Shown: positions 2,472 through 46,200 of the stretch, in pieces
How positions within the stretch are numbered: the first letter of the stretch is position 1
Layout of the letters: the number at the start of each line of letters is the position of its first letter
Origin: Mytilus edulis
Lineage: Eukaryota
NCBI RefSeq assembly: GCF_963676685.1
Contig: NC_092344.1
Span: 100,068,001 to 100,132,000, forward strand
Length of the DNA: 64,000 nt
Direction of reading: 5' to 3'
Made by a program: the position numbers and the translations under genes
Notes under the pieces: generated by a model
Seen by the model: the letters and a program-made list of their open reading frames with translations, nothing else
Databases searched by the model: none
What the model was told of the DNA's origin: nothing

Positions 2472-4075
2472 GCATTCAAAAAATCAGAATGTGAATATAT
2501 ATGTTCAAACTCTTTTAGGTCATTTTTTAGTAGCAATAAACAAAAAAAAACTATGTTAATTGGACATGCTTTGATACTATATATGCCCTTGAATTTTTAC
2601 TAGATAACATTTTTGTTCGCTTTGGGGATTCCGTATATCGTCAGATTATCGGAATTCCAATGGGGACTAACTGTGCACCACTTATTGCGGACCTGTTTTT
2701 GTATTGTTATGAGTTACAATTTATGACAAAAATAAGCAAAGACCCATCGAAACAACATCTGATAAACAAATTTAATAATACTTTTAGATATTTGGATGAT
2801 ATTTTGGCTCTCAATAATGACGACTTCAGTATGTATATTAATGAAATTTATCCTGTTGAACTTACTTTAAATAAAGCTAATACTAACAATGACCACTGCC
2901 CTTTTCTCGATCTTGATATCTATATCACTAATGGAAAGCTGAATACTAAAATTTATGATAAAAGGGATGATTTTTCATTTCCTATCGTTAATTATCCGTT
3001 TTTAGATGGTGACGTTCCCTTGTCACCATCTTACGGTGTTTATATATCTCAACTTGTACGATTCGCTCGTGTATGTAACAATGTTTTAGATTTTAACGAG
3101 AGAAATTTATGTATTACTGATAAATTATTACACCAGGGTTTTCGATATCACAAACTAGTCAAAACATTTACTAAATTTTATCATCGCTATAAAGACATCA
3201 TTCGTAAATATAGCTCAACATGCAGACTTCTAATACGTTCAGGTATTTCACATCCAATTTTTATGGTAATATTCTTTATAAAGCACAAAGGTGTCAGTAT
3301 TCACCTCAGAAACTTACAAAACCTTTGAATAAACTTATTAAGAAGGGATATAATTACGATACTGTTGTCAAGTCATTAAAGATTGCATATTTTGGCGTTA
3401 ATATTGAGTCACTGATAAGGTCTTTGCATCGGAACTAAACACATTATTTTTTAAAAACAGTTGTTGGCATGACACGGGTTATGTTCTTCTCATATATGTT
3501 ATGATGGTATGATGCTAAACCCCTAACGGGAAGGATTGTGCCTGATGTTCATATGATGAAATCATAATCTTTCAGTCAGTTTAATTGAAGTCTGGAGCTG
3601 GCATGTCAGTTAACTGCTAGTAGTCTGTTGTTATTTATGTAGTATTGTCATTTTGTTTATTTTCTTTGGTTACATCTTCTGACATCAGACTCGGATTTCT
3701 CTTGAACTGAATTTTAATGTGCGTATTGTTATGCGTTTACTTTACTACATTGGTTAGAGGTATAGGGGGAGGGTTGAGATCTCACAAACATGTTTAACCC
3801 CGCTGCATTTTTGCGCCTGTCCCAAGTCAGGAGCCTCTGGCCTTTGTTAGTCTTGTATTATTTTAATTTTAGTTTCTTGTGTACAATTTGGAAATTAGTA
3901 TGGCGTTCATTATCACTGGACTAGTATATATTTGTTTAGGGGCCAGCTGAAGGACGCCTCCGGGTGCGGGAATTTCTCGCTACATTGAAGACCTGTTGGT
4001 GACCCTCTGCTGTTGTTTTTTATTTGGTCGGGTTGTTGTCTCTTTGACACATTCCCCATTTCCATTCTCAATTTT
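2472..4075 (+). mobile_element. 5'-truncated Penelope-like retroelement (Naiad-type RT), frameshifted
   Basis: RT motifs YRQIIGIPMGTNCAPLIADLFL, FRYLDD, FLDL, YDKRDDF. A 1-bp deletion in the T-run near 3258 splits ORFs 2660-3328 and 3220-3438. The ORF ends SLHRN* with no C-terminal GIY-YIG. The 3' UTR matches 52059-52697. Confidence 0.85.
3490..3556 (+). promoter_or_regulatory. Type II SECIS-like hairpin in retroelement 3' UTR
   Basis: Helix I TCATAT/ATATGA; core ATGAT (3501)...TGAT (3543); 11-bp helix II GGTATGATGCT/AGGATTGTGCC; unpaired AAA (3517-3519); mini-stem CCC-TAAC-GGG. About 50 nt after the stop codon. Confidence 0.75.
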
Positions 4076-4812: not shown

Positions 4813-5789
4813 TAATTTAATTCTAAATTCCATTTTAAACCGTAGAAAACCATGAAAAAACGTTGATGACGTCACGGTCACATGACTAAATTATGTCTAG
4901 GGGCTGATAACAAAATAACGTCAGCCAATCAGAAGACGCGTTACATCCAAAATTAAATTATTAAATGATTTGTTCTAATTATTCAAGCATTTTACTTTGC
5001 AATGACTACAAAGGTGATAAATTTTAATATATTCAGCCTCCTCCACATATCGCAAATGTTTGCGTTATAACGCAAAGGTTTGCGTTATTTCGCATAAGAA
5101 CGTTTCTAAAGTATTTTATTGTATTTTTGTGGCAAAAACTAAAATGACTAATTTTGTTTGTATACTCACGTATTTTGTATGCCTTTATCAGTAATATACA
5201 ATTTAGACTTTATTTTTTTCTTTATCATCAAAGTTGAAAATCTATATGTTATTTCTATTATCATTATGGAAAATATACCTACATGCAGACGGAAATATCC
5301 AACCAAAAATCTTCCCGAGTGACTGCATTTTGACTGAAAGAAATGTCGTTTGTTTTCTCACCTAATTCTTACACGATATATTCTATAATTCACACACTAA
5401 GTGCAATCTAATGTTATTGGTCCAATGTTTTTTCCCTTCTAACATGAAAACAAACTTTATTTTAAACACAACTTTACAGTCCCACTCATATTTTGTTTCT
5501 TGTTTTTATTGGTATTAATTGATTTAGATGTAGTAGATATGTTTAGTCATGCATGATTTGTTTTGGGAAATTCCTATTTATCTATTTTTTGCATGTATAC
5601 GCTCTTTAGATGGTAAAACTAGCCTATGCTCTACGTATCTTTTTTTGTGCTTTGAAACTTTTGTTAGGGTATTTTTTTTAGTGATAATTAGGAAGGTCTG
5701 GTGGGTTGTTTATTCCAAGTATCGACTCTGTGGTGATTATTTTCGCCTTGTTAGATTTTCGATTGTGTGCATGTAGTTTGGAGTATCGA

Positions 5790-10922: not shown

Positions 10923-13900
10923 CTGCAAATTGAAGTAATATCACAAGATTTCGACGTGCATTGCATTATACTGTTGCATGTTAGTATGTACAGTGAAATA
11001 GCCATCTTTATGTGTATTGTGGTTGGATTTACCTCGCTGAAAGCTCCTACAACAAAAGCTGGTCCAAACATCAATATATCGTGGAGTGAGTTTAAATTGA
11101 AGAATCAGTTTTAGTGTTGTGGGCTGTCTGCCAGCAGTAATGAAATAGAGCAGCAAAGAATATTCTGAGGAAACTGACTCGTAAAAGATATGCCGTACAA
11201 CCAAACAAAATGATGATTTGTTTTATTCGCCGAGATTTTGATTTTTGAAAAATGTAGAATATATACGTACTTACGAACAAAGACTTTCAATCTGTCTTTT
11301 ATGAGGCAAAACAGTGAATTCTTCCGATTCAGATACATTCTGCGACAGTTTCCAAGTACACAGATTAAGTCCAACAAAATCGCATCCGTTTACTGTACTC
11401 AAGACAACTAAAATGAAAAGTTGTCTATCAAAATTCTGTGTTGTCCAGGAGAAAAAAACTGTAATGTGTTGGTTTCATTTTTACAGCACTGGGTCGATAC
11501 CTTTGCCGGTGGACTACCAGTCCCCAGAGGTTTGCGCAACTCAGTAGTCAGTACTTCGGGACTGATATGATTTATAACAAACCTTTCTTAGATGGACCTT
11601 TTATAAATTTTTAAACAATGAAGACACTAAAGTTTCAACTCCCTCAGGCAAAGTGGACAGTAGATGGTTTAGTCTATTCTTTTAAGGCCTTTTTCTTCAT
11701 AAAGCTTCTATTAAAACTGTTTAGAATCTCACACATCCTCGGCTTTCAAATATTCGGCTTTGCGCGCTCCTGATGAAGGTAAAGTCAGACTGAAGTGAAA
11801 TTTTTGTGTTTGCTCTTAATCTATAGAATATCCAGAATATGCTGAAAAGTTAGTGGATATAATGCGGCTTCCTTTAAATCATACTTTGACAGATGGAAAG
11901 TCGGAAGAATACTGAAGTATTATATGAGGAATTCGCTCCACAACTCAGTAAAATATTCACCACAATAACAAAATATGGATATATTATTTAAAGTGTATGG
12001 ATATTGTTTTTTACGGAAGCGTTTTAGCGCCACACTTTTTTTTTATATTTTTCTTCCTATCTTCGCAAAGGTTTGCGTAATATCGCAAAGGTTTGCGTAA
12101 TATCGCAAAGGTTTGCGTTATATCGCAAATGTTTGCGTTATATCGCAAAGGTTTGCGTTGTAACGCAAACCAAACCTTTTGCGTTGTAACGCAAACATTT
12201 GCGATATAACGCAAACCTTTGCGTCACAACGTAAACCTTTTGCGGTATAACGCAAACCTTTGCGTACCTTTGCGTTATAACGCAAACCTATGCGAAATAA
12301 CGCAAAGGCAAACCTTTGCGTTGTAACGCAAACCTTTGCGATAAAACGCAAATCTTTGAGTTATAACGCAAACCTTTGCGAAATAACGCAAACCTTTGTG
12401 AAATAACGCAAACCTCTTGATTTCAATTTTTCATTAAGTTTTGTATGTATATGACCGACTGTCATTCATTTCGTTTGTGGTTTATTAGTAGGTTAAAAAA
12501 GAAACATACATCCATGCAAGGCCAAATTATTATATTAAAAATGCATAAGAATAATGGAATACTTGAAGTTCAATTATACATAAATAAAAACTGATTTGTG
12601 CATAAAAAAAGTATATAATTTAACATGAAAATAGACGCTATATAGGCATATTTAAATTGAAAGATAATTCTTTTTTTTTTTTTTGAAGCAAGAAATCGTT
12701 TTTTAAAATCTCAGAATATGATAAAGATTCTTTGATAGAAAGTCATTGAATTTTCATTTCAATATAGTGAAGTATTTTTAAGATGCTTGGCTAGTAATTT
12801 TAATGGAGAGAACATAATTTTATTAATAAAACATCTTCATTCTGTACATTTATTGTCAAAGGGTAGCTTGTTTAAATCTAACCAACTTTACACAGTTCTC
12901 AAACGGGATCTTACTGTGGAAGTATATTTATATTCGGTTAAACAACTCGTCTAAACATCAACCCAACAATGTTAGATCTGTAAATTTGCTTTCGCAAATT
13001 TTTTGTTCTTCCCTCGCCGGGATTTGAACCCATGCTACTGAGATATCGTGACACCATATCGCCTGCACTGTAGCCGTCCCGCTAGACCACACGACCACCT
13101 GGGCTTCATAAAAATGAAGCTTTCGGTGGCCGGGTGTTACCTTTCCACGTCAGTTTTAATCTAGCGTCGTACTACAGTACATGATATATAAGGCATGGAG
13201 ATGTTATTTTTACAGATCAGATAAATTATCTATAGTAAAGGATCCTACAAATTAATGTAAGATACAGTCACAGAAAATAATTATATTTATAAGTACGTCT
13301 GAGCAGACTTGGGGTAATTGTAATTGTAATCATTAATCAGCTGTAATTGATTACAATTTTTCAAGTAATCATTGTAATCATTAATCAACCAAAAATCTGA
13401 TTACATGTAATTTAATTTAATCAATTACTTTTCAAAATACCCTGTAATCCTGATTACTTTTTGATTACATTCTGATTACAATGAAAAAAATCTTAAACTG
13501 TGTTTATGGTCAATAAATGAACAATTTTGTTATTCTTATTTAATAAATATGTACATCTTAAGATAGTTTGGTTTACTTTATAAAGCATTGATTTGTATAC
13601 TTCAGAAAAAATAAACTGTTACAGTATTGAAAAGTCATCATTATATCATCAAAGTCATCAAAATATATTTTACTGGCCTTAGTAAAATATATTGTACATA
13701 TATTCAAAATTTAAAGATTTACATATATAATATATATTTGATAATAACTGTTATATTCAAGTAATATTATACTTTTCTTTAATCCTGAATTATGATCTTT
13801 TGTTAATATTGTGATTTTTGTCAACTTTGAATTGACAGGTAGGAAACCAATTAAGGTTTGTTTTTATTGCAATTTCCAATTGAGTATAGCTGTAGGACAA

Positions 13901-14314: not shown

Positions 14315-15918
14315 GCATTCAAAAAATCAGAATGTGAATATATATGTTCAAACTCTTTTAGGTCATTTTTTAGTAGCAATAAACAAAAAAAAACTATGTT
14401 AATTGGACATGCTTTGATACTATATATGCCCTTGAATTTTTACTAGATAACATTTTTGTTCGCTTTGGGGATTCCGTATATCGTCAGATTATCGGAATTC
14501 CAATGGGGACTAACTGTGCACCACTTATTGCGGACCTGTTTTTGTATTGTTATGAGTTACAATTTATGACAAAAATAAGCAAAGACCCATCGAAACAACA
14601 TCTGATAAACAAATTTAATAATACTTTTAGATATTTGGATGATATTTTGGCTCTCAATAATGACGACTTCAGTATGTATATTAATGAAATTTATCCTGTT
14701 GAACTTACTTTAAATAAAGCTAATACTAACAATGACCACTGCCCTTTTCTCGATCTTGATATCTATATCACTAATGGAAAGCTGAATACTAAAATTTATG
14801 ATAAAAGGGATGATTTTTCATTTCCTATCGTTAATTATCCGTTTTTAGATGGTGACGTTCCCTTGTCACCATCTTACGGTGTTTATATATCTCAACTTGT
14901 ACGATTCGCTCGTGTATGTAACAATGTTTTAGATTTTAACGAGAGAAATTTATGTATTACTGATAAATTATTACACCAGGGTTTTCGATATCACAAACTA
15001 GTCAAAACATTTACTAAATTTTATCATCGCTATAAAGACATCATTCGTAAATATAGCTCAACATGCAGACTTCTAATACGTTCAGGTATTTCACATCCAA
15101 TTTTTATGGTAATATTCTTTATAAAGCACAAAGGTGTCAGTATTCACCTCAGAAACTTACAAAACCTTTGAATAAACTTATTAAGAAGGGATATAATTAC
15201 GATACTGTTGTCAAGTCATTAAAGATTGCATATTTTGGCGTTAATATTGAGTCACTGATAAGGTCTTTGCATCGGAACTAAACACATTATTTTTTAAAAA
15301 CAGTTGTTGGCATGACACGGGTTATGTTCTTCTCATATATGTTATGATGGTATGATACTAAACCCCTAACGGGAAGGATTGTGCCTGATGTTCATATGAT
15401 GAAATCATAATCTTTCAGTCAGTTTAATTGAAGTCTGGAGCTGGCATGTCAGTTAACTGCTAGTAGTCTGTTGTTATTTATGTAGTATTGTCATTTTGTT
15501 TATTTTCTTTGGTTACATCTTCTGACATCAGACTCGGATTTCTCTTGAACTGAATTTTAATGTGCGTATTGTTATGCGTTTACTTTACTACAATGGTTAG
15601 AGGTATAGGGGGAGGGTTGAGATCTCACAAACATGTTTAACCCCGCTGCATTTTTGCGCCTGTCCCAAGTCAGGAGCCTCTGGCCTTTGTTAGTCTTGTA
15701 TTATTTTAATTTTAGTTTCTTGTGTACAATTTGGAAATTAGTATGGCGTTCATTATCACTGGACTAGTATATATTTGTTTAGGGGCCAGCTGAAGGACGC
15801 CTCCGGGTGCGGGAATTTCTCGCTACATTGAAGACCTGTTGGTGACCCTCTGCTGTTGTTTTTTATTTGGTCGGGTTGTTGTCTCTTTGACACATTCCCC
15901 ATTTCCATTCTCAATTTT
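14315..15918 (+). mobile_element. Duplicate of the truncated Penelope-like (Naiad-type) element
   Basis: Identical ORFs 14503-15171 and 15063-15281; part of duplication copy 2. Confidence 0.85.
15333..15399 (+). promoter_or_regulatory. Type II SECIS-like hairpin (duplicate)
   Basis: Same fold as 3490-3556; one G>A at the single mismatched position of helix II. Confidence 0.75.
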
Positions 15919-17040
15919 AAGTTTGAAGTTATTATTTTCTAATATATATATAAAACAAAATCTTTTCTAAAAAGTGCTTTAGTTGTATCAAATTCATTCA
16001 TATCATTCAAAATGTTTGTTCTTTTTAAATTCATTGTAATCAGATGTAATCATGATTACTTTGCTAATGTAATCATTAATTTAATCAGACACTTTCAGAA
16101 ATGATGTGATCATAAATTTAATTCAATCGTACAAATGACAAAGTAATTGTAATTTAATCAATTACATTGAAAGTAATCGGACCCATCTCTGCGTCTGAGC
16201 CAGTGACAACTCTACAACAGATTTATATTCGGTTATAGCTATATTAGCAGGGTTGATTTTGTTTCTTCGGCATAATCTCAATTTACTCAATTTTCTTTGT
16301 AATATATATAAAAGTAACATGGATATCGTTTTTTGGTGGCCTTTACAGTTGCTGTTGGGTGTGAGCAATTTAATGCTCCGTGTTGAAGACAGTACTTTAG
16401 TCTATGATGGTTTACTTTTACGAATAGTGACTTAGATGGAGAGTTTTCTTATTGGCACTCATACCACATCGTCTTATATTATTCTGCTCATTATTAGTTA
16501 AGGAATGACTGTAATATATTTTCTGTCTATTCAAAATAATATAAAAAATGTGGTGCACACTGAATAACGCGCGTAGCGGGTTATTTAACAGTGTACACCA
16601 CATTTTTTAATGCTATTTTGAATAGACAGAAAAAATATTACAGTCATTTCTTATAATTTAATTCTAAATTCCATTTTAAACCGTAGAAAACCATGAAAAA
16701 ACGTTGATGACGTCACGGTCACATGACTAAATTATGTCTAGGGGCTGATAACAAAATAACGTCAGCCAATCAGAAGACGCGTTACATCCAAAATTAAATT
16801 ATTAAATGATTTGTTCTAATTATTCAAGCATTTTACTTTGCAATGACTACAAAGGTGATAAATTTTAATATATTCAGCCTCCTCCACATATCGCAAATGT
16901 TTGCGTTATAACGCAAAGGTTTGCGTTATTTCGCATAAGAACGTTTCTAAAGTATTTTATTGTATTTTTGTGGCAAAAACTAAAATGACTAATTTTGTTT
17001 GTATACTCACGTATTTTGTATGCCTTTATCAGTAATATAC

Positions 17041-17575
17041 TGTAATGGCCTGACCATTAAGTTTAACCGACGATTGGGCTCAAGCAACAAGACTATCAGG
17101 TGCTGATAATTTATTCTTAAACCAATCTAACAAATGGTAAAAAGCTGAAAAACAAATAAAATACAATTTTACAATGTGTTCAATTAATGTTATTATAACG
17201 AAATGTCAAAGGTAATTGATAGCACAGTCCGTTGAATGCGAGAAAATGTTGTACTTTCAAGGACAGATAAATTCCAGGTATTTCACGGAGAAAAGGTTCA
17301 ATCATACGAAAGGCAATTTGAAGGCTTCAAAAACAATGTTGTAAAGTTAACTCACTCTGTGGTTAGCCACGAATTGTGTCCTAGATGACGTTTGTCTTTG
17401 AAAAGTTCTCCAGAACTGGTATGACCTTGCAATGTTCAGTTTGAGAGAGGGAAAGGTAGCGACGGTACGATGTTTTAACGTTAAAGATGAATAATCCTCC
17501 TAGGTTGGAACACATAATTAGATTAAGAATATAATCAAACGAACTATATAAATTACGGAACGGTGTAACAGAATA
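17041..17575 (-). repeat. 3' LTR of BEL/Pao element
   Basis: Direct repeat of 21824-22358; adjacent to the PPT. Confidence 0.95.
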
Positions 17576-17745
17576 CTCCCCATCTGATGTCTATCTGATA
17601 TCACTTTTCCATAAATTTTTCGAATATGTAAACAAGATTTACACAAATGAATTAATCCCAATATAAATTGAATATATACAGGTGAAATGTCCACTATTTC
17701 GTGTGAGAAATATCAGATCTCAACGATTTTTCACTATAAAGGTTC

Positions 17746-20700
17746 CTAATAAGTACGTTCCACGTGAAACTGGGTAGGCACAGTTTTTTGTCCTTTAGAA
17801 GAAGGGTGTCTCGGACGACATTGTTGTGTTCTGTAGAATGTTCTATTACTGCTGTATCGATAATGGGAACTGTTTTCTCCAACGTAGTTAGACGGCGATG
17901 ACGATCGAAGATAGATCGAAGTATAACAAGAGTTAGTAGTTGGTTGTCTTCCGATTTGGCGATATGACACATCTTTGTGAGTATCAGACGAAATTAGGCG
18001 TTTCGTCATAACGTCCAATCCTGCAGATCTAGTCGCTCTATCTGTATCTGTAGAGTGGCGTCCTCTATGTTTGATTTTGTCGTAGTAATGTCCAAGAAAA
18101 GGTGTTACTCTGTGACGATGTCCAGATAAGACTACTGGTTCCTTTTCACTTATATTCAAGTCAGATTTGACAATACTGCTTCCTCCTCGTAGTAGACGTT
18201 GCTCATGCAATGGCAGATTGAGATTGGCAAGAGGTCCTTCTTTCGGAATAGGTTTGTGAATGCTATTGATTTCCTCTCCATGAACTTTAGGTTCTGTTGA
18301 TTTCGGATTGAAACTTTCTTTATCTATAGATTTTTCTATAGAAGTCACAGATTTTGCTTTTAGTGACGCGAGTGATGTCCCTTTAGATGAATTTGTGCGT
18401 TTACCAGGCTTGGTACTAGGTCCTGTACATTCAAGGGATTGCATTGAATGCGATTTAGCGACCTTGGCATTCGAATGAAGGTTTGTGTCGTTATACTGAA
18501 CAACAATTGGATTCTTGTCCTTGACGGCTATTTCCGGTCTTGAGGCAAGACGTTGTTCTGATTCCGTGATTGAAACGTTAGTTATCTTTGTGTTGACTTG
18601 AATAGGAGAAGTTTGCTTGTCAATGTATGTATTTCCAATTATGACCCAACCAAGTCTCAACTTTTGGGCAAATGGAGTTCGGGATGGTCCTAGGCGTTGT
18701 TCAAGGACGTGGTGTGCCTCTATAAGGTCCCTTCCAATAAGGAGAAGAATTTGACAACGTTCCTCTATTGGTGGAATGCTTCCTCTGAGTTCTTTCAGAT
18801 GAGGATGATGCATTGCAACTTCAGGAGTAGGAATTTCGTCTCGATGATTGGGAATATTTTTACATTCAATTAATGTAGGCAGATCAAATTGTACGTCACT
18901 ATGTACAGATTTTATGACGAAATCTTTTCCTCTTTTCCCGGAAGTAGCTACTCTGCCGGAGCATGTCGTAAGAGAGTAGTTTTCAGGTTTCTCCCGAACG
19001 TTAAACAGACTGAAGAATTCAGGCGAGGCAAGAGACCGGTTGCTTTGGTCGTCAATAATGGCGTACATCCTGATAATTTTGTTTGTCTTGTCCTTGTGGT
19101 ACACGTCCACAGGTAATATCTTGGCACAAGATTTCTCGCTCTTATGATCTTTGTAGATCTCTGTGCAGATCGAACTTACAGAGGTTAACTTTGTTTCAGC
19201 TGACTCTGTCTGCTCCCCGCCGTAGGCTTGTCTGGGTGAGCTAAACTGGGAACTTTCAGATTGTTGTGGTCTAGTGATGTGAAGTGCTGTGGTATGTCGT
19301 TCACTTCCACACTCGTTACAACTGATACTTGCGTTGCAGTCCCGACTTCTGTGTGTGGTTGACTCACAACACTTGTAGCACACATTGTTTTGTCTTAACA
19401 TTTCCTTGCGTTCCTCGATTGGTTTGGCTCGGAATGCTCGGCATTCATTCAAGGTATGCTTTGTCTTGTGTAGGATACACAGATTTTGTTGTTGACTGCT
19501 GTCTTCAGTTTGCTGTTCAACAGCCGTCTTATGGACGTTGACTTTAGAGTACGTCTGAGGTGTGAACCTTGGCGTAGAGTCTTTTGTATTTGGTGTTACT
19601 TTTGATCCAAAGATGAACCCAGGATCGTTCTTAATTTTGCTCATTTCCCTGATGAAGGCAGAGAATTCTGTGAATGGCGGAAAGGCAACTTCATATTTGG
19701 ACTTGTATCTTGAAGCCCTTGTTATCCACTTTTCTTGGAGTCCGTATGGTAGTTTTTCCACAATAGGATTTATACCGGACGAAGAATCGAAATAAGCAAG
19801 CAAACATCCCAGCTTGGGATTTTCCTTGTGATATTCGATTTCTGATAGAATATCAGACAAGTCATAAAGACGTGCGTTATCTTTGTTCGTCAAGGTAGGA
19901 AAATTGACGAGTTTACTCGTGATAGAGGCTTCCAACATTTCTGGAGCACCATATCGCTCATCCAGTCTTTGCCATAACCTCTGTAAGCCTCTAGTAGGGT
20001 TGTTGGCATTTGATGCCCTAATACTCATGGCATGTTTACCAGACTCTGGCCCTAGCCACTTTATCAGTAGGTCTATTTGTTCCGAGTCAGAAACTTGTAA
20101 TTCGTCTATGACGTTTTTAAAGCTTGCTTTCCATGTATGGAAGGATTCTGCCCGATCGTTAAAGCTTGTTAATCGAGAGAAAAGCAGGTCCTTACGCAAG
20201 AGAAATCTAGTAATCTCCGATGTTGGGTTGATTTGTTGCTGGTGTGCAACAGGGATCTCTTCTATTACGCCTTGTTTTTGGTGTGAAACAGGGATCTCTT
20301 CTATAACGTCTTGTTTTGTGCGTAAGACAGGGATCGCTTCTTTACTACCCTGTTTTTGGTGTTCAGCAGGGATCTCATCTGAAAGGCCTAGTTTTTGTAT
20401 GCCGGTTACTAATCCCAGATCTGGGATAAAGGTAACTTCCGGTGACTTATAATTGGAAGGCAAGACAGCAGATGTCTGTGACAGCAAGTTCTGTGCCACG
20501 GATGGCACGAACGCTGGTGCGTCGTGACTCAGCTCGATCTTAACAGGAATTTGTTTTTTCCTTTGAGGTTCTGTTACTTCCTTTACAACAGTTGATACAG
20601 GAAGTTTATTGACGAAATCTTGCACGCGCTGGAGCGGGTCTTCCTTTTCGTCAGGGAGATCGCTATACGCTTGGCTATCATCGTATTCCAGGATACGAGC

Positions 20701-21582
20701 CTCGGCTTCTGCGGCTGCAGCTTCTCTCTGTGCTTCAAGAAGGTTAAATTTGGCTTTAAGTTGGGCCTTTTCTCGGCTTACTCGTGCAGCTTCTTGTTGC
20801 ATTTGAGCCTTCCTGCGCATAGCCTCTTGTTCTAACTGAACTGTTCTCTGTGCGGCCTCCTGAGCGACTTCTTGTTCCATTTTTGCCTTTTTGTGTGCTG
20901 CTTCCTGTTCCATTTCAATTTGTCTGAACAGGGCTTGTTCCTCTAACATTGCTTCCTGTTGTAGGATAATGGCATGTTTTTCTACAAAGGCTATTTTAGA
21001 CTTGGCAGCCTCTGCCTTGGCACGCTTTCTCCGTGCTAGGCTTGACATGTCTGACACGTTAGAGCTACCACTGCGTGAGGTTTTCTTACCTTTTGAGGTC
21101 TTTGTTTTAGTGGATTTGGCCTTTGTTAGGGCGAGTCGATGCTCGTGTAGTTTTTCCATAACAAGTTCCACTTTGGACAGACGTAAATCCAAAGAGAGTT
21201 TACATGCATCAATTTCTTTTTGACTCTCCAATGTTCGGGTCCTTTTCAGAAAGTCTAGGTATTCATCTGTGAGCCTACGATAATTATTACAGGCTTTAAC
21301 AAGTTTGTCCTGGACTGTTAGGAGTTGCTGGAGATCGTTAGGAGGCGTTGTTACTTCCAATAACTGGGATTCAATGTCTGCCCAGAGAGCCTCTAGTTCC
21401 TGACAGAACTTGTCACGTTTTTCAGTGAAAGCTCCTTGTCCTTTTTCCGTGAGGTCACGTACTCGCCTAGCCTCGGGAGTTTCATCTGACTGTGATGTAT
21501 TAGACGGATTTTCTAATAGTTCAGGGACATCTCCTTCTTGGGGCTGAATCTCTTCTTGTTGTTCCACATGACTGGGATCCAT
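17746..21582 (-). CDS. BEL/Pao Gag-protease polyprotein (1278 aa) with in-frame degenerate pol remnant
   Basis: Coiled-coil N-terminus, DUF1759-type Gag (FHTWKASF...RLDERYG), three BEL zinc knuckles (CILHKTKHTLNEC, CYKCCESTTHRSRDC, CNECGSERHTTALH), aspartic protease (YAIIDDQSNRS...LLIGRD...LGWVIIG). No RT YxDD, RNase H or integrase DDE motif. Decayed LRVGGRL/HYH..HQGRH region only. Confidence 0.92.
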   Translation of the reverse strand: MDPSHVEQQEEIQPQEGDVPELLENPSNTSQSDETPEARRVRDLTEKGQGAFTEKRDKFCQELEALWADIESQLLEVTTPPNDLQQLLTVQDKLVKACNNYRRLTDEYLDFLKRTRTLESQKEIDACKLSLDLRLSKVELVMEKLHEHRLALTKAKSTKTKTSKGKKTSRSGSSNVSDMSSLARRKRAKAEAAKSKIAFVEKHAIILQQEAMLEEQALFRQIEMEQEAAHKKAKMEQEVAQEAAQRTVQLEQEAMRRKAQMQQEAARVSREKAQLKAKFNLLEAQREAAAAEAEARILEYDDSQAYSDLPDEKEDPLQRVQDFVNKLPVSTVVKEVTEPQRKKQIPVKIELSHDAPAFVPSVAQNLLSQTSAVLPSNYKSPEVTFIPDLGLVTGIQKLGLSDEIPAEHQKQGSKEAIPVLRTKQDVIEEIPVSHQKQGVIEEIPVAHQQQINPTSEITRFLLRKDLLFSRLTSFNDRAESFHTWKASFKNVIDELQVSDSEQIDLLIKWLGPESGKHAMSIRASNANNPTRGLQRLWQRLDERYGAPEMLEASITSKLVNFPTLTNKDNARLYDLSDILSEIEYHKENPKLGCLLAYFDSSSGINPIVEKLPYGLQEKWITRASRYKSKYEVAFPPFTEFSAFIREMSKIKNDPGFIFGSKVTPNTKDSTPRFTPQTYSKVNVHKTAVEQQTEDSSQQQNLCILHKTKHTLNECRAFRAKPIEERKEMLRQNNVCYKCCESTTHRSRDCNASISCNECGSERHTTALHITRPQQSESSQFSSPRQAYGGEQTESAETKLTSVSSICTEIYKDHKSEKSCAKILPVDVYHKDKTNKIIRMYAIIDDQSNRSLASPEFFSLFNVREKPENYSLTTCSGRVATSGKRGKDFVIKSVHSDVQFDLPTLIECKNIPNHRDEIPTPEVAMHHPHLKELRGSIPPIEERCQILLLIGRDLIEAHHVLEQRLGPSRTPFAQKLRLGWVIIGNTYIDKQTSPIQVNTKITNVSITESEQRLASRPEIAVKDKNPIVVQYNDTNLHSNAKVAKSHSMQSLECTGPSTKPGKRTNSSKGTSLASLKAKSVTSIEKSIDKESFNPKSTEPKVHGEEINSIHKPIPKEGPLANLNLPLHEQRLLRGGSSIVKSDLNISEKEPVVLSGHRHRVTPFLGHYYDKIKHRGRHSTDTDRATRSAGLDVMTKRLISSDTHKDVSYRQIGRQPTTNSCYTSIYLRSSSPSNYVGENSSHYRYSSNRTFYRTQQCRPRHPSSKGQKTVPTQFHVERTY

Positions 21583-21823
21583 GTTGACTCAACGTTGTTG
21601 GGTTGCTGTCGAGTTCACACAAGATATGTAGTCCACTGTCAGTGTAAAGGTATGTAAGTTGCTACGTTGTCGTTCCTTGTCTGGATATGTAAAGACAGGT
21701 TGTCGTCAATTTACTGTACGTCAAGGGATGACGCGTACATGCAGGGCTCAACAGGTAGGTTGCTGTGTAGCTGTGGAGTGGCGTTATCTGTGAGACACAA
21801 CAGGCAAGTTGTAGACTTTTTAC

Positions 21824-22358
21824 TGTAATGGCCTGACCATTAAGTTTAACCGACGATTGGGCTCAAGCAACAAGACTATCAGGTGCTGATAATTTATTCT
21901 TAAACCAATCTAACAAATGGTAAAAAGCTGAAAAACAAATAAAATACAATTTTACAATGTGTTCAATTAATGTTATTATAACGAAATGTCAAAGGTAATT
22001 GATAGCACAGTCCGTTGAATGCGAGAAAATGTTGTACTTTCAAGGACAGATAAATTCCAGGTATTTCACGGAGAAAAGGTTCAATCATACGAAAGGCAAT
22101 TTGAAGGCTTCAAAAACAATGTTGTAAAGTTAACTCACTCTGTGGTTAGCCACGAATTGTGTCCTAGATGACGTTTGTCTTTGAAAAGTTCTCCAGAACT
22201 GGTATGACCTTGCAATGTTCAGTTTGAGAGAGGGAAAGGTAGCGACGGTACGATGTTTTAACGTTAAAGATGAATAATCCTCCTAGGTTGGAACACATAA
22301 TTAGATTAAGAATATAATCAAACGAACTATATAAATTACGGAACGGTGTAACAGAATA
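21824..22358 (-). repeat. 5' LTR of BEL/Pao element
   Basis: Direct repeat of 17041-17575; upstream of the gag ATG (21582); AATAAA about 70 nt from its 3' end on the minus strand. Confidence 0.95.
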
Positions 22359-30372: not shown

Positions 30373-32892
30373 TAAGTATGGAGATGATCAAAATCTGTGA
30401 TAAAATAGACCTATACTTGTTGTACAGTGTAGTTAAAAGGACAGAAAGAAATTGTAGGGGGTCAAGAAAATTTCAACAACTAGGCAGATGTGTTTCTTGA
30501 TTAAGCAAACAGAATATTCTTTAAAGATGAAGGAAAAAGGAAATTGTGTGAACTGCTAACTAATTTTTCAATTTCAAAGACAATTTAAATGAACTAATTG
30601 GGATTTAATGCAATTGCATGAATTATTTTAAAAACATTGTGATTCTATAAACTTACACAGGTTTCACATGAACATTATTTTGATAAACAGCAATAGGTTA
30701 ACTGTTTTATATATTTGTGTAATTAATTTTGATTTTATATTTATGTTTTTACTTTTTCATGTTGTCTAAATAAATTTGCATTTTTGCATAATATGGACTT
30801 AGTCTTTGAATATGAAGGTAGAAGTTTTAAAAATAAGATGGGTCTAGTTAATTGGAGTGTTTGCTATGATAGTTGTTCAAAAGGTGAAGACAATTTCAAG
30901 AGGACCTACTGGTATCTGGTTTCATGGTTTTATCAGGGGATTGTAATAGATGTATGATTGGAGTCTCTAAAATCTGGATTGAATGAAAAAAAGTAGAATT
31001 ATTGAAGTCTTTTATAATCATTGTTCTTCTAATGATCACCCAGTAATGTACAGGATGATATAATCTGAGCACTTTGAAAAGAAATGTCAGTTCAATGTCT
31101 TTTTGAATTTCATTTGAAATTCTTAACTTTATAATTGATATTATCAAGCTTGAAATAGAGACATAATCATGTGGATCATCCATACCACTAAAACAGACTA
31201 AAATTCCTCATCTTCCTAATTGAATATGTTCACAGTCTATTAGAAAAGGTTCATATTCAAGAAAACTCAACATCAATCAATAAACACCTTACATCCAGTG
31301 AAAATTAATTTGTGCACATTCAGGGCAAGAACAAATTAACAATTTAAAAAATACAAAATGGTAGGTTCTGCAAGTTTATGGCTGGAACTGGAAAATGGAG
31401 ATAGGATGGATAAAGGACAGAAATTAGGCCATTGAAAAGTCAATAAAGGACCCTTCAAAGAGTTGGTGCAAGGTTTCTTTAACATACAGAGGGAATTTCA
31501 CTTTCTACACAAGGAATAAGATTTAACATTCCCATTCAAATCCCACATTGCTGCACAGCCTAACAATGGCCTAACTTTAGCAAAGGTTTTAATGCAAAAC
31601 TGACAGATGTCATGTTCACTAAATTTTATGTTCCAGGCTACACCAAAGTGAAGTCATGTCAGGTGATCTCTTTTAAAATATAATGTACAAGTTGTTTCTT
31701 AAAACAAAAAAGATGACCTTAAACTTAGTAACTGAAAAATTTGCCTCAGCAGGAAAACTTAACAGTGACTATTATCAAATTTCTTATTGCTGGCAAATCT
31801 CTCTGTTATATGTATTCACCACTTTTCTAGAGGGTTATCTAGTCAATCTGGACCGTGAAATAATTAATAGACCTTTTGACCTATACTTACCATACCAAGA
31901 GTGTACATGCTGAAATGTTTCCTCTGCTTTACTTGACATAATTAAATAAAGTTTCAAATAAATAAAAATGATCAATGATCAAGGTAAGATGAAGCCTATC
32001 AGACAGACATGTGCATCTTACTATCATACAATATTTATCCACGAAACATAATTAAGTACGAAGATTTAACCTTGATCATTGAACAAAGAAAATGAGATCA
32101 AGGTCAGATGAACCATGGCAGACAATGTGTTCATCATACTATCAATCCAAACACCAAATAAGTGTGCTATTGCTTATAAAACAATCACAAGAGTGCACAC
32201 ACTGAAATGTCTCACCTTCTTTTCTAATCATTGATATTATGTTGATAGTCCTAAATATAAAGCTTTATTTACAACTGTCACATAAACTTAACATTAACCA
32301 AGAAAACTAAACCATATGAAAATGAGGTCAAGGTCAGATAAACCATGCCAGGCAGACATGTACAGCTGACAATTCTTCAATACAACAAATATAGTTGACC
32401 TATTGCTTTGATTTAAGAAAAACAGACCAAAACAAAAAAACTTAATGCTGAGCAATGATCCGTGAAAATGAGGTCAATGTCAAATAAAACCTGCGCGACT
32501 TACATATAGATCATAAAATATTTCCATACACCAAGTTTAGTTGACCTATTGCATATAGTATTAGAAAAAAAGACCAAAATTCAAAAACTTAACTTTGACC
32601 ACTGAACTATGAAAATAAGGTCAAGGTCAGATGACACCTGTCAGCTAAACATGTACACCTTACAATCATTCCATACACAAAATATAGTCGACCTATTGCA
32701 TACAGTATAAGAAAAACAGACCAAAAATTTACACTGAGCAATACATATAGTCTGGATACAACTTTAGAGAAATTTGTATTTCGTTGAACATTTAAATTCG
32801 TGGATCACCTATTCCCATGAAACCCACGAAAATTGGTATCCATGGAATAATAATGAATCCACAGTATCTTAACAAATAGACAAAATCAGAAA

Positions 32893-40200: not shown

Positions 40201-43200
40201 TGACAAAAAGAGTGTGGAAAACTGAATATTTTAGTGAAGTCAAAGGACCATAACTCTACAGAAAATCTACAATTTTATGGGACTGTATAGAACTAACACA
40301 AACAATGTGCAGTGCATGTGCATATCCTGAAAAAAAATCTACAATCATGACAAAAGTCAAAATAACATCAAAGCTGATTCTTACAATATCAAACTCAATT
40401 TACCTTAACCTAATTCAAAGTTTTCAGGACCTGTTATATAACTGTACAAAATTCAACAACATTTTGGAGCTTCTTTTATCTTTGTTTGAGATAACAAACC
40501 TTAACAATATATATAACTGGTGCAGGACTTATCATCTCAAAATTGTGCTTTATTTTAGTTAAAACATTCAAATACATATTAGAAATTACAACATGCTCTT
40601 TAAAGTTCAAAACATTTTACCTCAGTTTAAGAGACAAATGAAGAAGTTGTCTATATCTGGTAAGGACAAAATATGTTATACATGTAGAAGAGAACTACAT
40701 ACATAGACATTTTCATCATACATGTACAGGTAACCTGTATATTAATGTAGACAAACCCTACATTACAGGACAGAATAATTATAACCCGTACATGATCTCA
40801 TGTCCACCTTTTCCCATGTTTCATCAAGATCACTGCTGTCAGTGTTGTTCCCTTCGTCATTTTTCTTCCTTGAATCTTTCATTTCTGCTCTTGTCAAAAA
40901 CTGCTGTTGCTCATCTTCTGATGAGTTGATGAAATCATTCCAAATCTATATATAATGATAATAGAAACCATTTAGATGTATGTCTTATCATAAAAGATAT
41001 GTGTTGCCTATCTAAGCTATTACCTGAATGAGACATTTAATGTCTACAAATGTTTGAACAATGACAAATACAATTCTATGCATAGTGCCAACTATTTGAT
41101 TTTATTCCAGCCTAACTCTCAGAGTGTATAATTATAACATATAAGTTGTTTGCTTGTTTGTCTGGTAAATCAGGAATATTTCATTAGTTATTGTTTGTAA
41201 TATTATAAAAAACTAGAGGCTCTAAAGAGCCTGTGTCGCTCACCTTGGTCTATGTGAATATTAAACAAAGGAAGAAGATGGATTCATGACAAAATTGTGT
41301 TTTGGTGATGATAATGTGTTTGTACATCTTACTTTACTGAACATTCTTGCTGCTTACAATTATCTCTATCTATAATGAACTTGGCCCAGTAGTTTCAGTA
41401 AAAAATGTTTGTAAAAATTTACAAATTTTATGAAAATTGTTAAAAATTGACTATAAAGGACAATAACTCCTTAGGGGGTCAATTGACCATTTCAGTCATG
41501 TTGACTTATTTGTAAATCTTACTTTGCTGTACATTATTGCTGTTTAAAGTTTATCTCTATCTATAATAATATTCAAGATAATAACCCAAAACAGTAAAAT
41601 TTCCTTAAAATTACCAATTTAGGGGCAGCAACCCAACAACGGGTTGTCCGACTCATCCGAAATTTCAGGGCAGATAGATTTTGACCTGATAAACAATTCA
41701 ACCCAATGTCAGATTTGCTCTAAATGCTTTGGTTTTTGAGTTATAAGCCAAAAACTGCGTTTTACCCCTATGTTTTATTTTTAGCTATGGCAGCCATCTT
41801 GGTTGGATGGCCAGGTCACTGGACACATTTTTTAAACTAGATACCCCAAAGATGATTGTGGCCAAGTTTGGATTAATTTGGCCCAGTAGTTTCAGAGGAG
41901 AAGATTTTTGTAAAAGATTACTAAGATTTACGAAAAATAGTTAAAAATTGACTATAAAGGGCAATAACTCCTAAAGGGGTCAACTGACCATTTCGGTCAA
42001 GTTGACTTATTTGTAAATCTTACTTTGCTGAACATTATTGCTGTTTACAGTTTATCTCTATCTATAATAATATTCAAGATAATAACCAAAAACAGTAAAA
42101 TTTCCTTAAAATTACCAATTTAGGGGCAGCAACCCAACAACGGGTTGTCGGATTCATCTGAAAATTTGAGGGCAGATAGATCTTGACCTGATAAACAATT
42201 TTACCCACAGACAGATTTGCTCTAAATGCTTTGGTTTTTGAGTTATAAGCCAAAAACTGCATTTTACCCCTATGTTCTATTTTTAGCCATGGCGGACATC
42301 TTGGTTGGTTGGCCGGGTCACACCACACATTTTTTAAACAAGTTATCCCTATGATGATTGTGGCCACGTTTAGTTTAATTTGGCCCAGTAGTTTCAGAGA
42401 AGAAGATTTTTGTAAAAGATTACTAAGATTTACGAAAAAATGGTTAAAAATTGACTATAAAGGGCAATAACTCCTTCAGGGGTCAACTGACCATTTTGGT
42501 CATGCTGACTTATTTGTAAATCTTACTTTGCTGAACATTATTGCTGTTTACAGTTTATCTCTATCTATAATAATATTCAAGATAATAACCAAAAACAGCA
42601 AAATTTCCTTAAAATTACCAATTCAGGGGCAGCAACCCAACAAAAGGTTGTCCGATTCATCTGAAAATTTCAGGACAGATAGATGTTGACCTGATAAACA
42701 CTTTTACTACATGTCAGATTTGCTCTAAATGCTTTGGTTTTTGAGTTATAAACCAAAAACTGCATTTTACCCCTATGTTCTATTTTTAGCCATGGCGGCC
42801 ATCTTGGTTGATTTGCCGGGTCACGCCACACATTTTTTAAACTAGATATCCCAAAGATGATTGTGGCCAAGTTTGGATTAATTTGGCCCAGTAGTTTCAG
42901 AGGAGAAGATTTTTGTAAAAGATTACTAAGATTTACGAAAAATGGTTAAAAATTGACTATAAAGGGCAATAACTCCTAAAGGGGTCAACTGACCATTTTG
43001 GTCATGTTGACTTATTTGTAAATCTTATTTTGCTGAACATTATTGCTGTTTACAGTTTATCTCTATCTATAATAATATTCAAGATAATAGCCAAAAACAG
43101 CAAAAATTCCCAAAAATTACCAGTTCAGGGGCAGCAACCCAATATTGGGTTGTCGCATTCATTTGAAAATTTGAGGGCAGATAGATCTTGACCTGATAAA

Positions 43201-46200
43201 CAATTTTACCCCATGTCAGATTTGCTCTAAATGCTTTGGTTTTTGAGTTATAAGCCAAAAACTGCATTTTACCCCTATGTTCTATTTTTAGCCATGGCGG
43301 CCATCTTGGTTGGTTGGCCGGGGCACGCCAAACATTTTTTAAACTAGATACCCTAATGATGATTGTAACCAAGTTTGGTTTAATTTGGCCCAGTAGTTTC
43401 AGAGGAGAAGATTTTTGTAAAAGTTAACGACGACGGACGACAGACGACGGACGACGACGACGCCGGACGCCAAGTGATGGGAAAAGCTCACTTGGCCCTT
43501 CGGGCCAGGTGAGCTAAAAATGGTCGAAGAGGTTTTTAAGTCAACATAAAGTCAACAATTAATTCAATGATTTAATTGGATACTGGATAGTAAGAAATAT
43601 ATTGATAACCTTTAACTAGATAATAAACTAAAGTTAAAGTTATTTTATAGTCCAATTAACAAACTTTACTAACTTCATTGGTTTTTTTTATACACACTCA
43701 AGTGTATTGATGCTGTACAATTTGATCTTCTCTTGTCTGAATACAGAACAAATGAGAACAAACCTGCATCTTCTCTTGTTCCATGAACAATTCTGCAAAG
43801 TGAGATACTGATGGTTCAAACAAATCAGTCTCAATATCAATTGAAGTGCCATCATCCTTTTCATTCAAATTAAGCAGGTACTTCACTGCAATATAAGTAT
43901 ACATGATTATTCTGAAGCTTGTGATTCTCTTGGCATGTAAATGTTATTGCATTAATTTATATACACCACATTAAATCCAAATCAGTATGACAAATAGCAT
44001 AAAACCAGTTAAACCAGCTGCATTCTAATTAAACCAGCTAACCATGGATATTCTTTTGATAAATTTTGTTAAAACAGCATAGTACAAATAGTGCCTCACT
44101 TAATATAAGCTACCTGTCAATTAACAAGCATTCTGAGAGTATTGCATGGCAATACATAGTCCCCTACTGGCTAAAAATTCATTGTACTAGAAGAAAAATC
44201 TAGCTTTATCAGTAATTTGTAATATTTTCTATCCAAAACAATATCTCCTGATAAAATACAACCCAACAAAATTCTAACTTGATCTATAACTTGTCATGGT
44301 TAAACTTTATAACAAATATCAAAACAATTTCTTCATACAGCATGACAATAAAAGGGGGAAACTGATTTAATACTTGTGAGAATTTTCTAAAGCAAAATGA
44401 CTACCAGCAAATTCAACAATTTTTCCATAATTTATAAAGGGACATAACTCTTGAAAGGTAAAAGTGACATCACCATAATTAGAACTTGATTGGTGGAATC
44501 AATCAATTTGTGTAAGTCTAATTCTATTTGTTTTAGATAAAACTAAAGTCAAGTTGTAGGTATTAAAAATATAACTTGAAGTTTTGAGTAGTTGCAAATT
44601 CAGAATTTCCCATGTGCATTTATAAATAATAATAATGATGACTATATTTTAAAGAGCTTTTGTCTGCAATGGAGACATAAAATGCTGCATGGCTTTCATT
44701 AATTAATCTTTTACTACAAGTGCAAATAATTACTGTTTTCAACTCTCCTAGCCTGCTTTGCTCCTGTCTTCTTCCTGCATACATAGTTGATGTTGTTATC
44801 ATATGTATTTGCAAATATGCGGTTTCTATTCACACGTCTTTTCTTAGATTCTGATCTTACTTCCTCTTTTATATCATGCTGCAATTCCCTGAAACAAAAA
44901 TAGCCTTATTATTAATAAAAAAATCAAATAAAAACAAGAGGCTGTCGTAGTCACAGCAAACCAGATTTTCCAGGAGAGGTCGAAACCTGAACAGTTGATC
45001 AAGTATGGACATATAACAGTTAAGCGTCAAAAACTCTGAATTTGGATTGTGATCGAATATTTGACACATCATAGGTTTGTGACAAAAAATGAATGTGGTC
45101 AAAGAACTGAAAAATTTGAAATAAGACATTTATATTATTACCTATTTAGGTCCAATATAAAAAATCTAAGTACATTGTAAGAATCAGCATATCAAAGAAT
45201 CCCCAAAATTCATTTTTTTTAAAAAGACTCAGAAGAGAATTAGTTCAGCAGTGGCGGATCCGGAACTTTTCATAAAGGGGGGCCCACTGACTGACCTAAG
45301 AGGGGACAGCTGAGCTGTCATGCTTCATTGATTCCCTATATAATCAATCAAATTTCCCCACAAAAGGGATTTCAGTCAATATCTACTTGTATGACAAAAA
45401 AAGTGTTGAAAACTGATTATTTAAGGAGGCTCACGGGTATCATCTTCAATAGCCAAGGGTTACGATCCACTCCCGTTCTCTTCACCCTTGGCGGATTGAG
45501 ATAAAATTTCAGAGACACAAGGTAAGGATTTTTATTGGTTGCAGTCGAAACTCACTGCATCCAATCAAAAAGCGCCTATAACCTGATCACGTGTAAATGT
45601 AGAAAGTGTTTGTAAACAATTGCCACATGTTTATTGTGCAACAAGTCTTTACATCCCTAAACATACGACTACATTTAGTGACAATTTGAATGTTTTTAAT
45701 CAACTGAAGAAGTTCCTGTGTATGTTCCATGCACAAATGCATGAATATTGACGTATATTTTCATTTCAAGGGTGAAGAGAACGGGAGTGGATTGTAACCC
45801 TTGACTAGCGAAGATGGCAGGTACAAATGTACAAGATTTTCAGAAAAAATTAAACATTTATTTTTTATTACAAATTTTATTTATTACCTTTAGTAGTTGT
45901 TACTTTATCCATATGGTACAAAAATCATTCCAAAAAATCAATACTTGTTTGTCCCAGGTGACTTTTAAAATGTAGATATCATTGGAAAAGCTCCAAATTA
46001 TCTCCCTTTGGTGCAAAAATGCCATTTTTTTGCATTAAAATGAAATATCTTTTTCAACTCATAGGTGACCTATATTTTTTATTGTTGTTTTCAAATAAGC
46101 TGTACATAAACTAAATAATTGTAAAATTTAAGTGATTTTTGTAATTTAGTTCTTTTTTTATTTCGATACTACCGCTATTTCTCCTATTAGTTCAACAAAA

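Follow-up and report, generated by a model that had tools for sequence, protein, structure and literature searches.

A young copy of a semi-autonomous Gag-protease BEL/Pao family in Mytilus edulis, which recombines with a complete family and is probably primed by its own spliced RNA

How does a retrotransposon that lacks the enzymes for its own copying remain mobile, and why should it keep a decayed remnant of those enzymes open for translation? The question is raised by a stretch of 64,000 nucleotides of Mytilus edulis (NCBI RefSeq assembly GCF_963676685.1, contig NC_092344.1, positions 100,068,001 to 100,132,000 of the forward strand), which is referred to here as the window and whose numbering is used throughout. 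The window contains a BEL/Pao element of 5318 bp with long terminal repeats (LTRs) and one open reading frame (ORF), located at 17746..21582 on the minus strand, which encodes 1278 aa with zero internal stops. An earlier note on this DNA had seen in it an old, still successful non-autonomous lineage, which makes its own capsid and protease and borrows the remaining enzymes. We consider it probable that the element is a young copy of a semi-autonomous Gag-protease family, which recombines with a complete family and is likely copied in particles shared with it, primed by its own spliced RNA. The expression data consist of three small-RNA runs from one study, and the other readings rest on DNA.

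The element and its insertion

The ORF contains Gag, three zinc knuckles (starting at aa 702, 735 and 755) and a protease (motif IDDQS at aa 843), and the reading-frame and motif checks agree with the earlier description of these parts. Three Gag zinc knuckles are a feature of BEL/Pao elements, and the knuckles together with the protease motif are kept in all 22 unbroken copies of the short family to which the element belongs. Reverse transcriptase (RT), RNase H and the DDE integrase core, which had been described as gone, were not found in the ORF by Pfam or by alignment to the ORFs of the complete partner family; Pfam gave DUF1759 alone, at E 5e-4, which is below its cut-off. Lacking RT, RNase H and the DDE core, the element is not autonomous.

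LTRs, a polypurine tract (PPT) and a 5-bp target site duplication (TSD), as expected of BEL/Pao, are all present. The LTR pair is 100% identical across the 538 nt compared, as had been proposed, and the true LTR measures 535 bp once the 5-bp TSD is allowed for. Canonical BEL/Pao LTRs end in TG...CA, but the ends are TA...CA in the window element and its family, and TA...TA in the main partner type. As TA ends are also found in the complete partner, the window family stays within BEL/Pao. The BEL/Pao organization, a single gag-pol ORF with DUF1759, Peptidase_A17 and DUF5641 and the order protease, RT, RNase H, integrase, is recognized through the partner, and the window copy retains DUF1759 only. 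The parts of the element are as follows.

17036..17040, unstranded: left 5-bp TSD
17041..17575, minus: 3' LTR, 535 bp, TA...CA, same sequence as the 5' LTR
17145..17355, minus: GT-AG intron of the 3' LTR, normally retained
17576..17587, minus: PPT, adjoining the 3' LTR
17746..21582, minus: single ORF with Gag, three zinc knuckles, protease and a 275-aa tail
20143..21582, minus: aa 1-480, 5' gag common with the complete family
19708..20133, minus: aa 484-625, DUF1759 capsid-region match, E 5e-4, below cut-off
18574..19602, minus: aa 661-1003, lineage-specific module with the end of the capsid region, nucleocapsid (NC) knuckles and protease
18373..18573, minus: tail A, aa 1004-1070, across the RT/RNase H deletion, no reliable partner match
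17944..18372, minus: tail B, aa 1071-1213, decayed pre-integrase linker and integrase zinc finger, pol frame
17749..17943, minus: tail C, aa 1214-1278, integrase remnants mostly off frame
17878..17884, minus: 7-nt microhomology at the ~665-nt deletion that took out the integrase DDE core
21813..21823, minus: 11-nt primer-binding site, abutting the 5' LTR, no TGG, exact complement of the spliced LTR junction
21824..22358, minus: 5' LTR, 535 bp
21920..21927, minus: first 8 nt past the intron acceptor, pairing with primer-site positions 1-8
21928..22138, minus: 211-nt GT-AG intron of the 5' LTR, consensus donor and pyrimidine-rich acceptor
22139..22240, minus: putative first exon, whose last 3 nt pair with primer-site positions 9-11; its start is taken from the inverted primer copy at locus L089
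22359..22363, unstranded: right 5-bp TSD
5195..5199, unstranded: empty paralogous site in the neighbouring tandem unit

The element sits in a tandem array of at least three units of ~11.86 kb, which are 99.5-99.9% alike. Two other units have an empty site, one at 5195-5199, where the earlier note had also seen it, and one upstream of the window. Therefore, the insertion either postdates a very recent duplication or is allelic to it. The array itself (window 1-24970 and locus L191) may represent such a duplication or assembled near-identical haplotypes.

The short family, its complete partner and their exchange of DNA

The lineage is found in many copies. A search with the tail DNA was positive in 40/40 scored places (the best 40 of 136 candidates), the short, Gag-protease-only family occupies more than 50 places in the genome, and an exact 21-nt pattern of LTR end and leader gave 53 matches, with 0 for the control. 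A protease search returned one block at 89-100% identity, many members having frames of ~1200-1330 codons, and a second block at 72-76% identity, many with ~2130-2200 codons. We fetched 52 short-family loci including the window and removed 8 incomplete ones and 1 duplicate; among the remaining 43 complete internal regions, 22 have an unbroken ORF to aa 1276 or further. A 5-bp TSD flanks 33 of 36 full-length copies, and eight distinct copies have identical LTR pairs. The closest database proteins are annotated from M. edulis (98%) and M. galloprovincialis (88-96%, tail included), so the family is present in at least two species.

The complete partner, for which the earlier note had proposed a search, was found in the same genome with related LTR ends. 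Its ORFs of 2127-2196 aa with pol domains occur at 18 of 20 loci chosen for long frames, with Peptidase_A17 and DUF5641 above the Pfam cut-off and RVT_1 and Integrase_H2C2 weak. Over aa 1-1003 the window ORF is 80-85% identical to the partner, and the synonymous divergence (dS) of the NC-protease part from it is ~0.8. The sequences support the view of an old, multi-copy, recently mobile and non-autonomous lineage, as the earlier note had suggested; the two outcomes named beforehand as speaking against it, a single-copy deletion and an RT or integrase core in the ORF, did not appear.

A second Gag-protease-only family of ~5 kb occupies at least 30 places, is mostly older and has long ORFs in 2 of 24 fetched copies. 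When rooted with five outgroups, the two short families cluster (support 95/90), and the approximately unbiased test rejects neither alternative to their joint origin (p 0.28). The second family (L093-L096, L110-L129) carries a 168-aa basic tail with similar pol remnants (partner aa ~1670-1756 and ~2066-2107), a likeness that may mark a cis-acting RNA or common descent. Across the families the LTR ends have moved from TG...CA, seen in outgroups and older second-family copies, to TA...CA, and to TA...TA in the partner, with TSDs staying at a clean 5 bp (L070-L088, L093-L123); young second-family copies have likewise switched to TA ends. Head-to-tail elements apparently sharing a middle LTR were observed at L055/L056 (G000:C11:10.84 Mb) and L080/L133 (G000:C12:57.48 Mb). 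The shrimp Palaemon carinicauda is the named source of a 2042-aa relative (P0013), which is 59% identical in the NC-protease part, above other mollusc matches outside Mytilus, and horizontal transfer is a possible explanation.

The relation between the short family and its partner differs along the ORF. Over aa 1-480 of the window copy, the best partner copy is 98-100% identical in 11 of 12 forty-codon windows and 96% in the remaining one, and the donors change along the way; from aa 661 to aa 1003 identity is 77-84%. A recombination map of 21 short-family and 23 pol-bearing copies in 30-codon windows, with a partner match set at >=95%, gives the same picture: such matches occur in 9-19 of the 21 short-family copies for aa 1-390, in 3-10 for aa 391-600, and in none for aa 661-990 except for a single patch in L107. 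Trees of 5' gag intermix all families, while the NC-protease tree keeps them apart. Exchange is also seen in the LTRs. Seven pol-bearing copies bear the short-family LTR, at 98.5-99.5% identity to L045; their LTRs are 99.3% alike and nested inside the 94% diversity of the short family, and most of the seven have the same leader as well. The main partner LTR has little in common with the short-family LTR past the first 7 bases, which are common to all.

By these comparisons the short family and its partner recombine, and the mosaic 5' gag together with the partner copies bearing a short-family LTR suggests that they likely share particles. The simplest reading would be co-packaging with template switching in both directions. 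Very probably, the RNA is packaged together with that of the partner, which would supply RT, RNase H and integrase, and template switching would account for the mosaics. Semi-autonomous elements are characterized by a complete, co-active partner whose LTR ends and primer site are related, and such a partner is present here.

Two repeat tracts of variable number lie in Gag, at aa ~205-290 (an EQEAA-type coiled coil) and ~400-455 (an EEIPV-type spacer), and are the source of most length variation among copies.

The open frame of the tail

The tail was mapped by local alignments to four partner copies with shuffled controls, which superseded a global DNA alignment with cheap deletions that proved overfitted. 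Residues 1071-1213 align to partner aa 1676-1819 in the pol frame, no match to the four partner copies was reliably above shuffles for aa 1004-1070, and the later pieces derive from partner aa ~1822-1846 and 2063-2107. At the integrase zinc finger the His pair is kept and CxxC is lost, the latter as the earlier note had read it. A 1-nt loss near aa 1213 departs from the pol frame in three aligned family copies; the window subfamily has an extra 5-nt loss, which restores the pol frame for aa ~1222-1235, and its last ~45 aa read integrase C-terminal DNA off frame. The remnant of about 290 aa that had been proposed to lie in frame is thus real as a remnant, but the tail is ~275 aa and follows the pol frame only at aa 1071-1213 and ~1222-1235. 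A microhomology deletion, such as the one that removed the integrase core, is typical of RT template switching, and its 7 nt led to rejection of a splicing origin for this deletion. A closer pol donor of the tail was not found among the best 150 of 281 candidates, the best complete-element match being 49% aa.

Selection differs sharply between the module and the tail. Among the 22 unbroken copies, the ratio of non-synonymous to synonymous divergence (dN/dS, omega) is 0.09 in the capsid region and 0.29 in the protease, and 0.75 for aa 1004-1213 (p 0.09 against 1); for tail C it is 1.0 in one subfamily, and a value of 50 in one subfamily rests on too few changes. With the mosaic copy L107 excluded, omega is 0.36 for aa 661-1003 (p 1e-7) and 0.745 for the tail. 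Between family and partner, NC-protease has dN 0.15 and dS 0.8-0.9, which indicates that both sides are constrained; tail B has dN 0.38-0.43 and dS 0.72-0.95, near the expectation if the partner side alone is constrained. Shared synonymous and non-synonymous changes stand at 35:22 in aa 661-1003 versus 22:74 in the tail (p 3e-6). The claim that the lineage supplies its own capsid and protease stands for NC-protease, which is under purifying selection, and not for the N-terminal half of Gag, which has been repeatedly exchanged with the partner and is no old private capsid.

The reading frame gives a different result from the residues. Stops and indels were counted in 49 usable tails out of 52, picked irrespective of ORF state, a change being shared when present in at least two copies. 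The shared tail changes in the ORF frame comprise 31 synonymous and 100 non-synonymous ones and no stop (0/131), against 14/266 stops in the other two frames (p 0.003). About 5-7 stops would be expected within the family and likewise on the deep branch, where ~145 tail substitutions include none; the Poisson probability of no stop is 0.001-0.006 and 0.0005-0.003, respectively. Shared tail indels are in frame in 3/3 cases versus 9/23 private ones, and past aa 1214 all ten shared indels break the frame. Although the frames used for the last ~55 codons differ between the two subfamilies, their stops fall at aa 1276 and 1279. The stop lies 118-185 nt from the PPT end in the short family and 78-140 nt in complete elements, and would lie ~1 kb away if it followed the protease. 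We conclude from these patterns that selection acts on the frame as far as about aa 1213 and keeps the end of the ORF near the 3' LTR, and that the amino acids are not selected. Selection for an open frame, as the earlier note had envisaged, is borne out by the shared stops and indels. RNA with a long 3' untranslated region (UTR) is subject to nonsense-mediated decay (NMD), and there is perhaps an even chance that the tail frame is open in order that the stop lies near the 3' LTR, which would likely shield the RNA from this decay.

The main rival for the open frame, by analogy with the mouse IAP 1-delta-1 element, is cis capture: a fusion of Gag, protease and tail would act in cis, capturing its own RNA during translation, and RNA decay would play no part. 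The gag-pol fusion of that element works in cis, according to the part of the report considered (PMC6466679), and the private NC-protease module is conserved and stays linked to the tail. However, a cis effect of Gag has no obvious need for 275 freely drifting codons in changing frames, and we regard this explanation as unlikely, though the strongest of those competing with decay.

It is less likely still that the tail is a disordered, polar or basic peptide for RNA binding or spacing, held by weak selection on composition. The hydrophobic fraction of whole tails is 0.19-0.26 in both families; the other frames give 0.28-0.38 and the partner segment 0.33. Hydrophobic-to-polar changes stand at 16:5 for the window copy, with p 0.03. 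In L066 the corresponding ratio is 15:10 and in the second family 9:4, neither significant; shared and private changes to hydrophobic residues are alike (p 0.27), the net charge is not above that of the other frames or the partner's own segment, omega is not different from 1, and a 19-codon tail deletion is common to 7 copies. A single-sequence AlphaFold model of protease and tail, with a pLDDT of 34, was uninformative. The new role that the earlier note had suggested for a basic, Ser/Lys-rich tail is not upheld, given the omega of 0.75, the neutral-looking ratio of synonymous to non-synonymous changes, the frames that differ by subfamily and the charge that is not raised; judged from sequence, the tail peptide is best seen as filler.

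An accident of ORF descent, kept by chance in a few master copies, is very improbable: the pol-frame part was stop-free at the outset, the copies are related so that events are fewer than copies, and the shared-private stop test gives p 0.07, but ~145 deep-branch substitutions and 131 shared changes passed without a stop, and in either family and either subfamily the ORF ends 118-185 nt away from the PPT end.

A primer built by splicing, and what the family means

No TGG follows the 5' LTR, and no tRNA primer site was found in the window element. Instead, the first 8 leader bases complement a site inside the LTR, ~100 nt in, past a T-rich tract and YAG, and the leader and this site co-vary across families. 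In an RT tree of 42 resolved loci, all tRNA-less elements fall in one clade of 17. When a consensus donor is joined to the acceptor, 10-12 perfect pairs are obtained in 11/11 families; the complement of the spliced junction is found, with compensatory changes, in 12/12 families of two RT subclades, and in 0/25 tRNA-type elements, many of which have short LTRs. The intron donor context is kept in 39 of 43 copies and the acceptor context in 40 of 43.

Two genomic DNA fossils show that the LTR intron is spliced. A genome search for the spliced junction identified a copy (L102/L190) whose 5' LTR has lost the intron exactly, and in L089 the primer site holds an inverted copy, 122 nt long, in which exon 1 is joined to exon-2 nt 1-8, as for a primer copied into DNA. 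The far end of the L089 copy is LTR nt 130 (~22240 in the window), a pyrimidine-A step ~25 nt past an AT-rich box, which places the RNA start ~114 nt upstream of the donor. In L036 an extension of the same kind measures 3 nt. Use of the spliced junction as primer is what these sequences suggest, and with good confidence we propose that RNA starts near 22240, that the 5' LTR intron is spliced, that the junction pairs with the primer site and that a cut past exon-2 nt 8 frees the primer.

Tf1-like priming from the unspliced 5' end, with a start at the AG before the paired 8 nt, was dropped for the spliced junction; this mode, or a pairing that is a U5-leader structure with some other primer, is improbable. 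Most families do offer 8-9 contiguous pairs without splicing, but the unspliced pairing extends by 0-1 nt versus 3-6 nt for the spliced one at consensus donors, exons 1 and 2 are joined in the L089 copy, and L102 has lost the intron exactly. When the unspliced 5' region was folded, its pairing probabilities were mixed, at 0.01-0.98.

Small RNAs speak for expression of the family. In 12-13% of each run, 829-1557 reads fall on the element, most of them antisense and ~30 nt long; they cover the element, including the family-specific tail, and none lie outside it. Among the listed peaks, 8/8 antisense ones start with U, 4/5 sense ones have A at position 10, and one sense/antisense pair overlaps by 10 nt. 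Antisense reads starting with U and sense reads with A at position 10 fit the ping-pong cycle of PIWI-interacting RNAs. The small RNAs imply sense transcription of the family, not of the window copy in particular. Splice joints were not found in these reads, as expected at 30 nt.

Together, the proposed cycle would run as follows. The family would make Gag and protease and enter particles alongside the RNA and enzymes of the partner. Transcription would begin at ~22240 and the 5' LTR intron would be removed, so that the spliced junction could pair with the primer site in cis. The RNA would then be cut past exon-2 nt 8, as suggested by where the pairing ends; the enzyme would probably be the partner RNase H, as in Tf1. 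Integration would be carried out by the partner integrase via the shared TA ends, and the tail frame would hold the stop near the 3' LTR, avoiding the decay of RNA with a long 3' UTR.

Several observations weigh against this account. Gene conversion between genomic copies could mimic co-packaging, and the omega of 5' gag mirrors partner history and is not creditable to the short family. Private tail changes include 6/231 stops, so that the shared-versus-private comparison (p 0.07) is not significant alone. Three Gag/NC stops are common to pairs of decayed copies, which shows that the shared filter is noisy and passes recurrent mutations; an alignment artefact may underlie one of the three in-frame indels counted as shared, and the otherwise young copies L032, L044 and L049 stop 50-150 codons early. 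As to priming, 9 of 51 loci with unresolved LTR ends were dropped from the RT tree, the main partner LTR type reached 11 pairs only with a relaxed donor pattern, and a third tRNA-less subclade (L159, L169, L184) gave no junction match. These three loci have a YAG site and a 5-nt leader match at a 2-4 nt offset, and no fitting donor was found in them.

Other repeats were noticed in the window. Tandem units of 20 bp form an inverted pair at 177-587 and 12040-12430, and short copies of this repeat lie at 5027-5114 and 16880-16940, ~100 nt from the insertion site. RT-like YLDD fragments (222-aa ORF) at 14503-15281 on the plus strand, at ~2660-3440 and at ~52700 are repeated in the array and inverted near 52059-52938; we take them to be probably a Penelope-like or LINE remnant. 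A 502-bp tandem repeat has four units at 41375-43466, and satellite-like arrays of ~150 bp lie in both orientations at 32187-32727, 54323-55363 and 59448-60456.

Gag-protease-only elements and self-priming are both already known, and the comparisons here draw on parts of the cited papers. RLG_Sabrina_SA and RLG_WHAM of wheat and barley are semi-autonomous Gag-protease elements with the partner RLG_Wilma; they too have an intact Gag-protease ORF without RT or integrase, occur at high copy number, have long co-evolved with a complete partner and have a shared LTR 5' end, but they are Ty3/gypsy elements of plants with a tRNA-Asp primer and almost no partner sequence in common (PMC9744471). The mussel family, in contrast, is an animal BEL/Pao family that exchanges near-identical 5' gag and LTRs with its partner, carries a pol remnant free of stops and has a tRNA-less primer site. 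Families of the TR-GAG and GAG/PROT-only kind likewise keep Gag or Gag and protease, some with decayed pol remnants, but are plant copia/gypsy, with no selection test on remnant frames reported in the portion considered (PMC13570524). What marks Sabrina_SA and TR-GAG, namely an intact Gag-protease ORF, no RT or integrase and many copies of the same structure, is found in the mussel family. Mouse IAP 1-delta-1 also has one in-frame gag-pol fusion ORF through an internal deletion, receives enzymes in trans and is very active; it is retrovirus-like, close to its parent and has lost part of gag (PMC6466679), whereas the mussel family has whole Gag and protease, a private module ~0.8 dS from the partner and a neutral tail. 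Tf1/Tj1 elements (Tf1/sushi) lack a tRNA site, have a primer site that complements their own LTR-derived RNA and need a cut, but Tf1 uses the unspliced mRNA 5' end as primer (PMC4600332, PMC6934838). The mussel element shares the tRNA-less self-complement and neither the mRNA-5'-end primer nor the Ty3/gypsy chromovirus lineage, its Pfam domains being Pao-type; its complement arises only where two exons are joined, ~110 nt into the RNA, and it belongs to another superfamily. Mollusc BEL/Pao clades, including the Sailor lineage, belong to the same superfamily and host group; the portion of that paper considered has no occurrence of 'non-autonomous' or 'PBS' (PMC6238403), and term matching gave no PBS or tRNA passage in PMC554778 and PMC3118150. 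A literature search over titles and abstract starts, mostly open access and apart from Repbase entries and supplements, returned no Gag-protease-only BEL/Pao family and no splice-built primer, so that a BEL/Pao case of either was not found in the open literature within that scope.

A broader and rather speculative reading, which we consider unlikely, is a consortium in which one complete and two ancient Gag-protease-only families pool 5' gag and LTRs, each guarding its own NC-protease. The short elements would contribute the surplus of Gag that a single-ORF element is unable to produce, all would prime with a spliceosome-built LTR-intron primer, and NMD would keep the tail translatable and remove 3'-LTR-spliced RNAs. 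If this were true, that removal would explain how the intron survives copying.

The family shows that a Gag-protease-only lineage can be long-lived in an animal and within BEL/Pao, and its partner is recognized from direct exchange of DNA and not from resemblance of motifs. Selection on a reading frame is here told apart from selection on the protein. Exact intron loss and the inverted spliced-primer copy are physical DNA evidence for tRNA-independent, splice-dependent priming. Both the Gag/Pol balance in single-ORF BEL/Pao elements and the extent of priming without a tRNA site become testable by mussel RNA sequencing.

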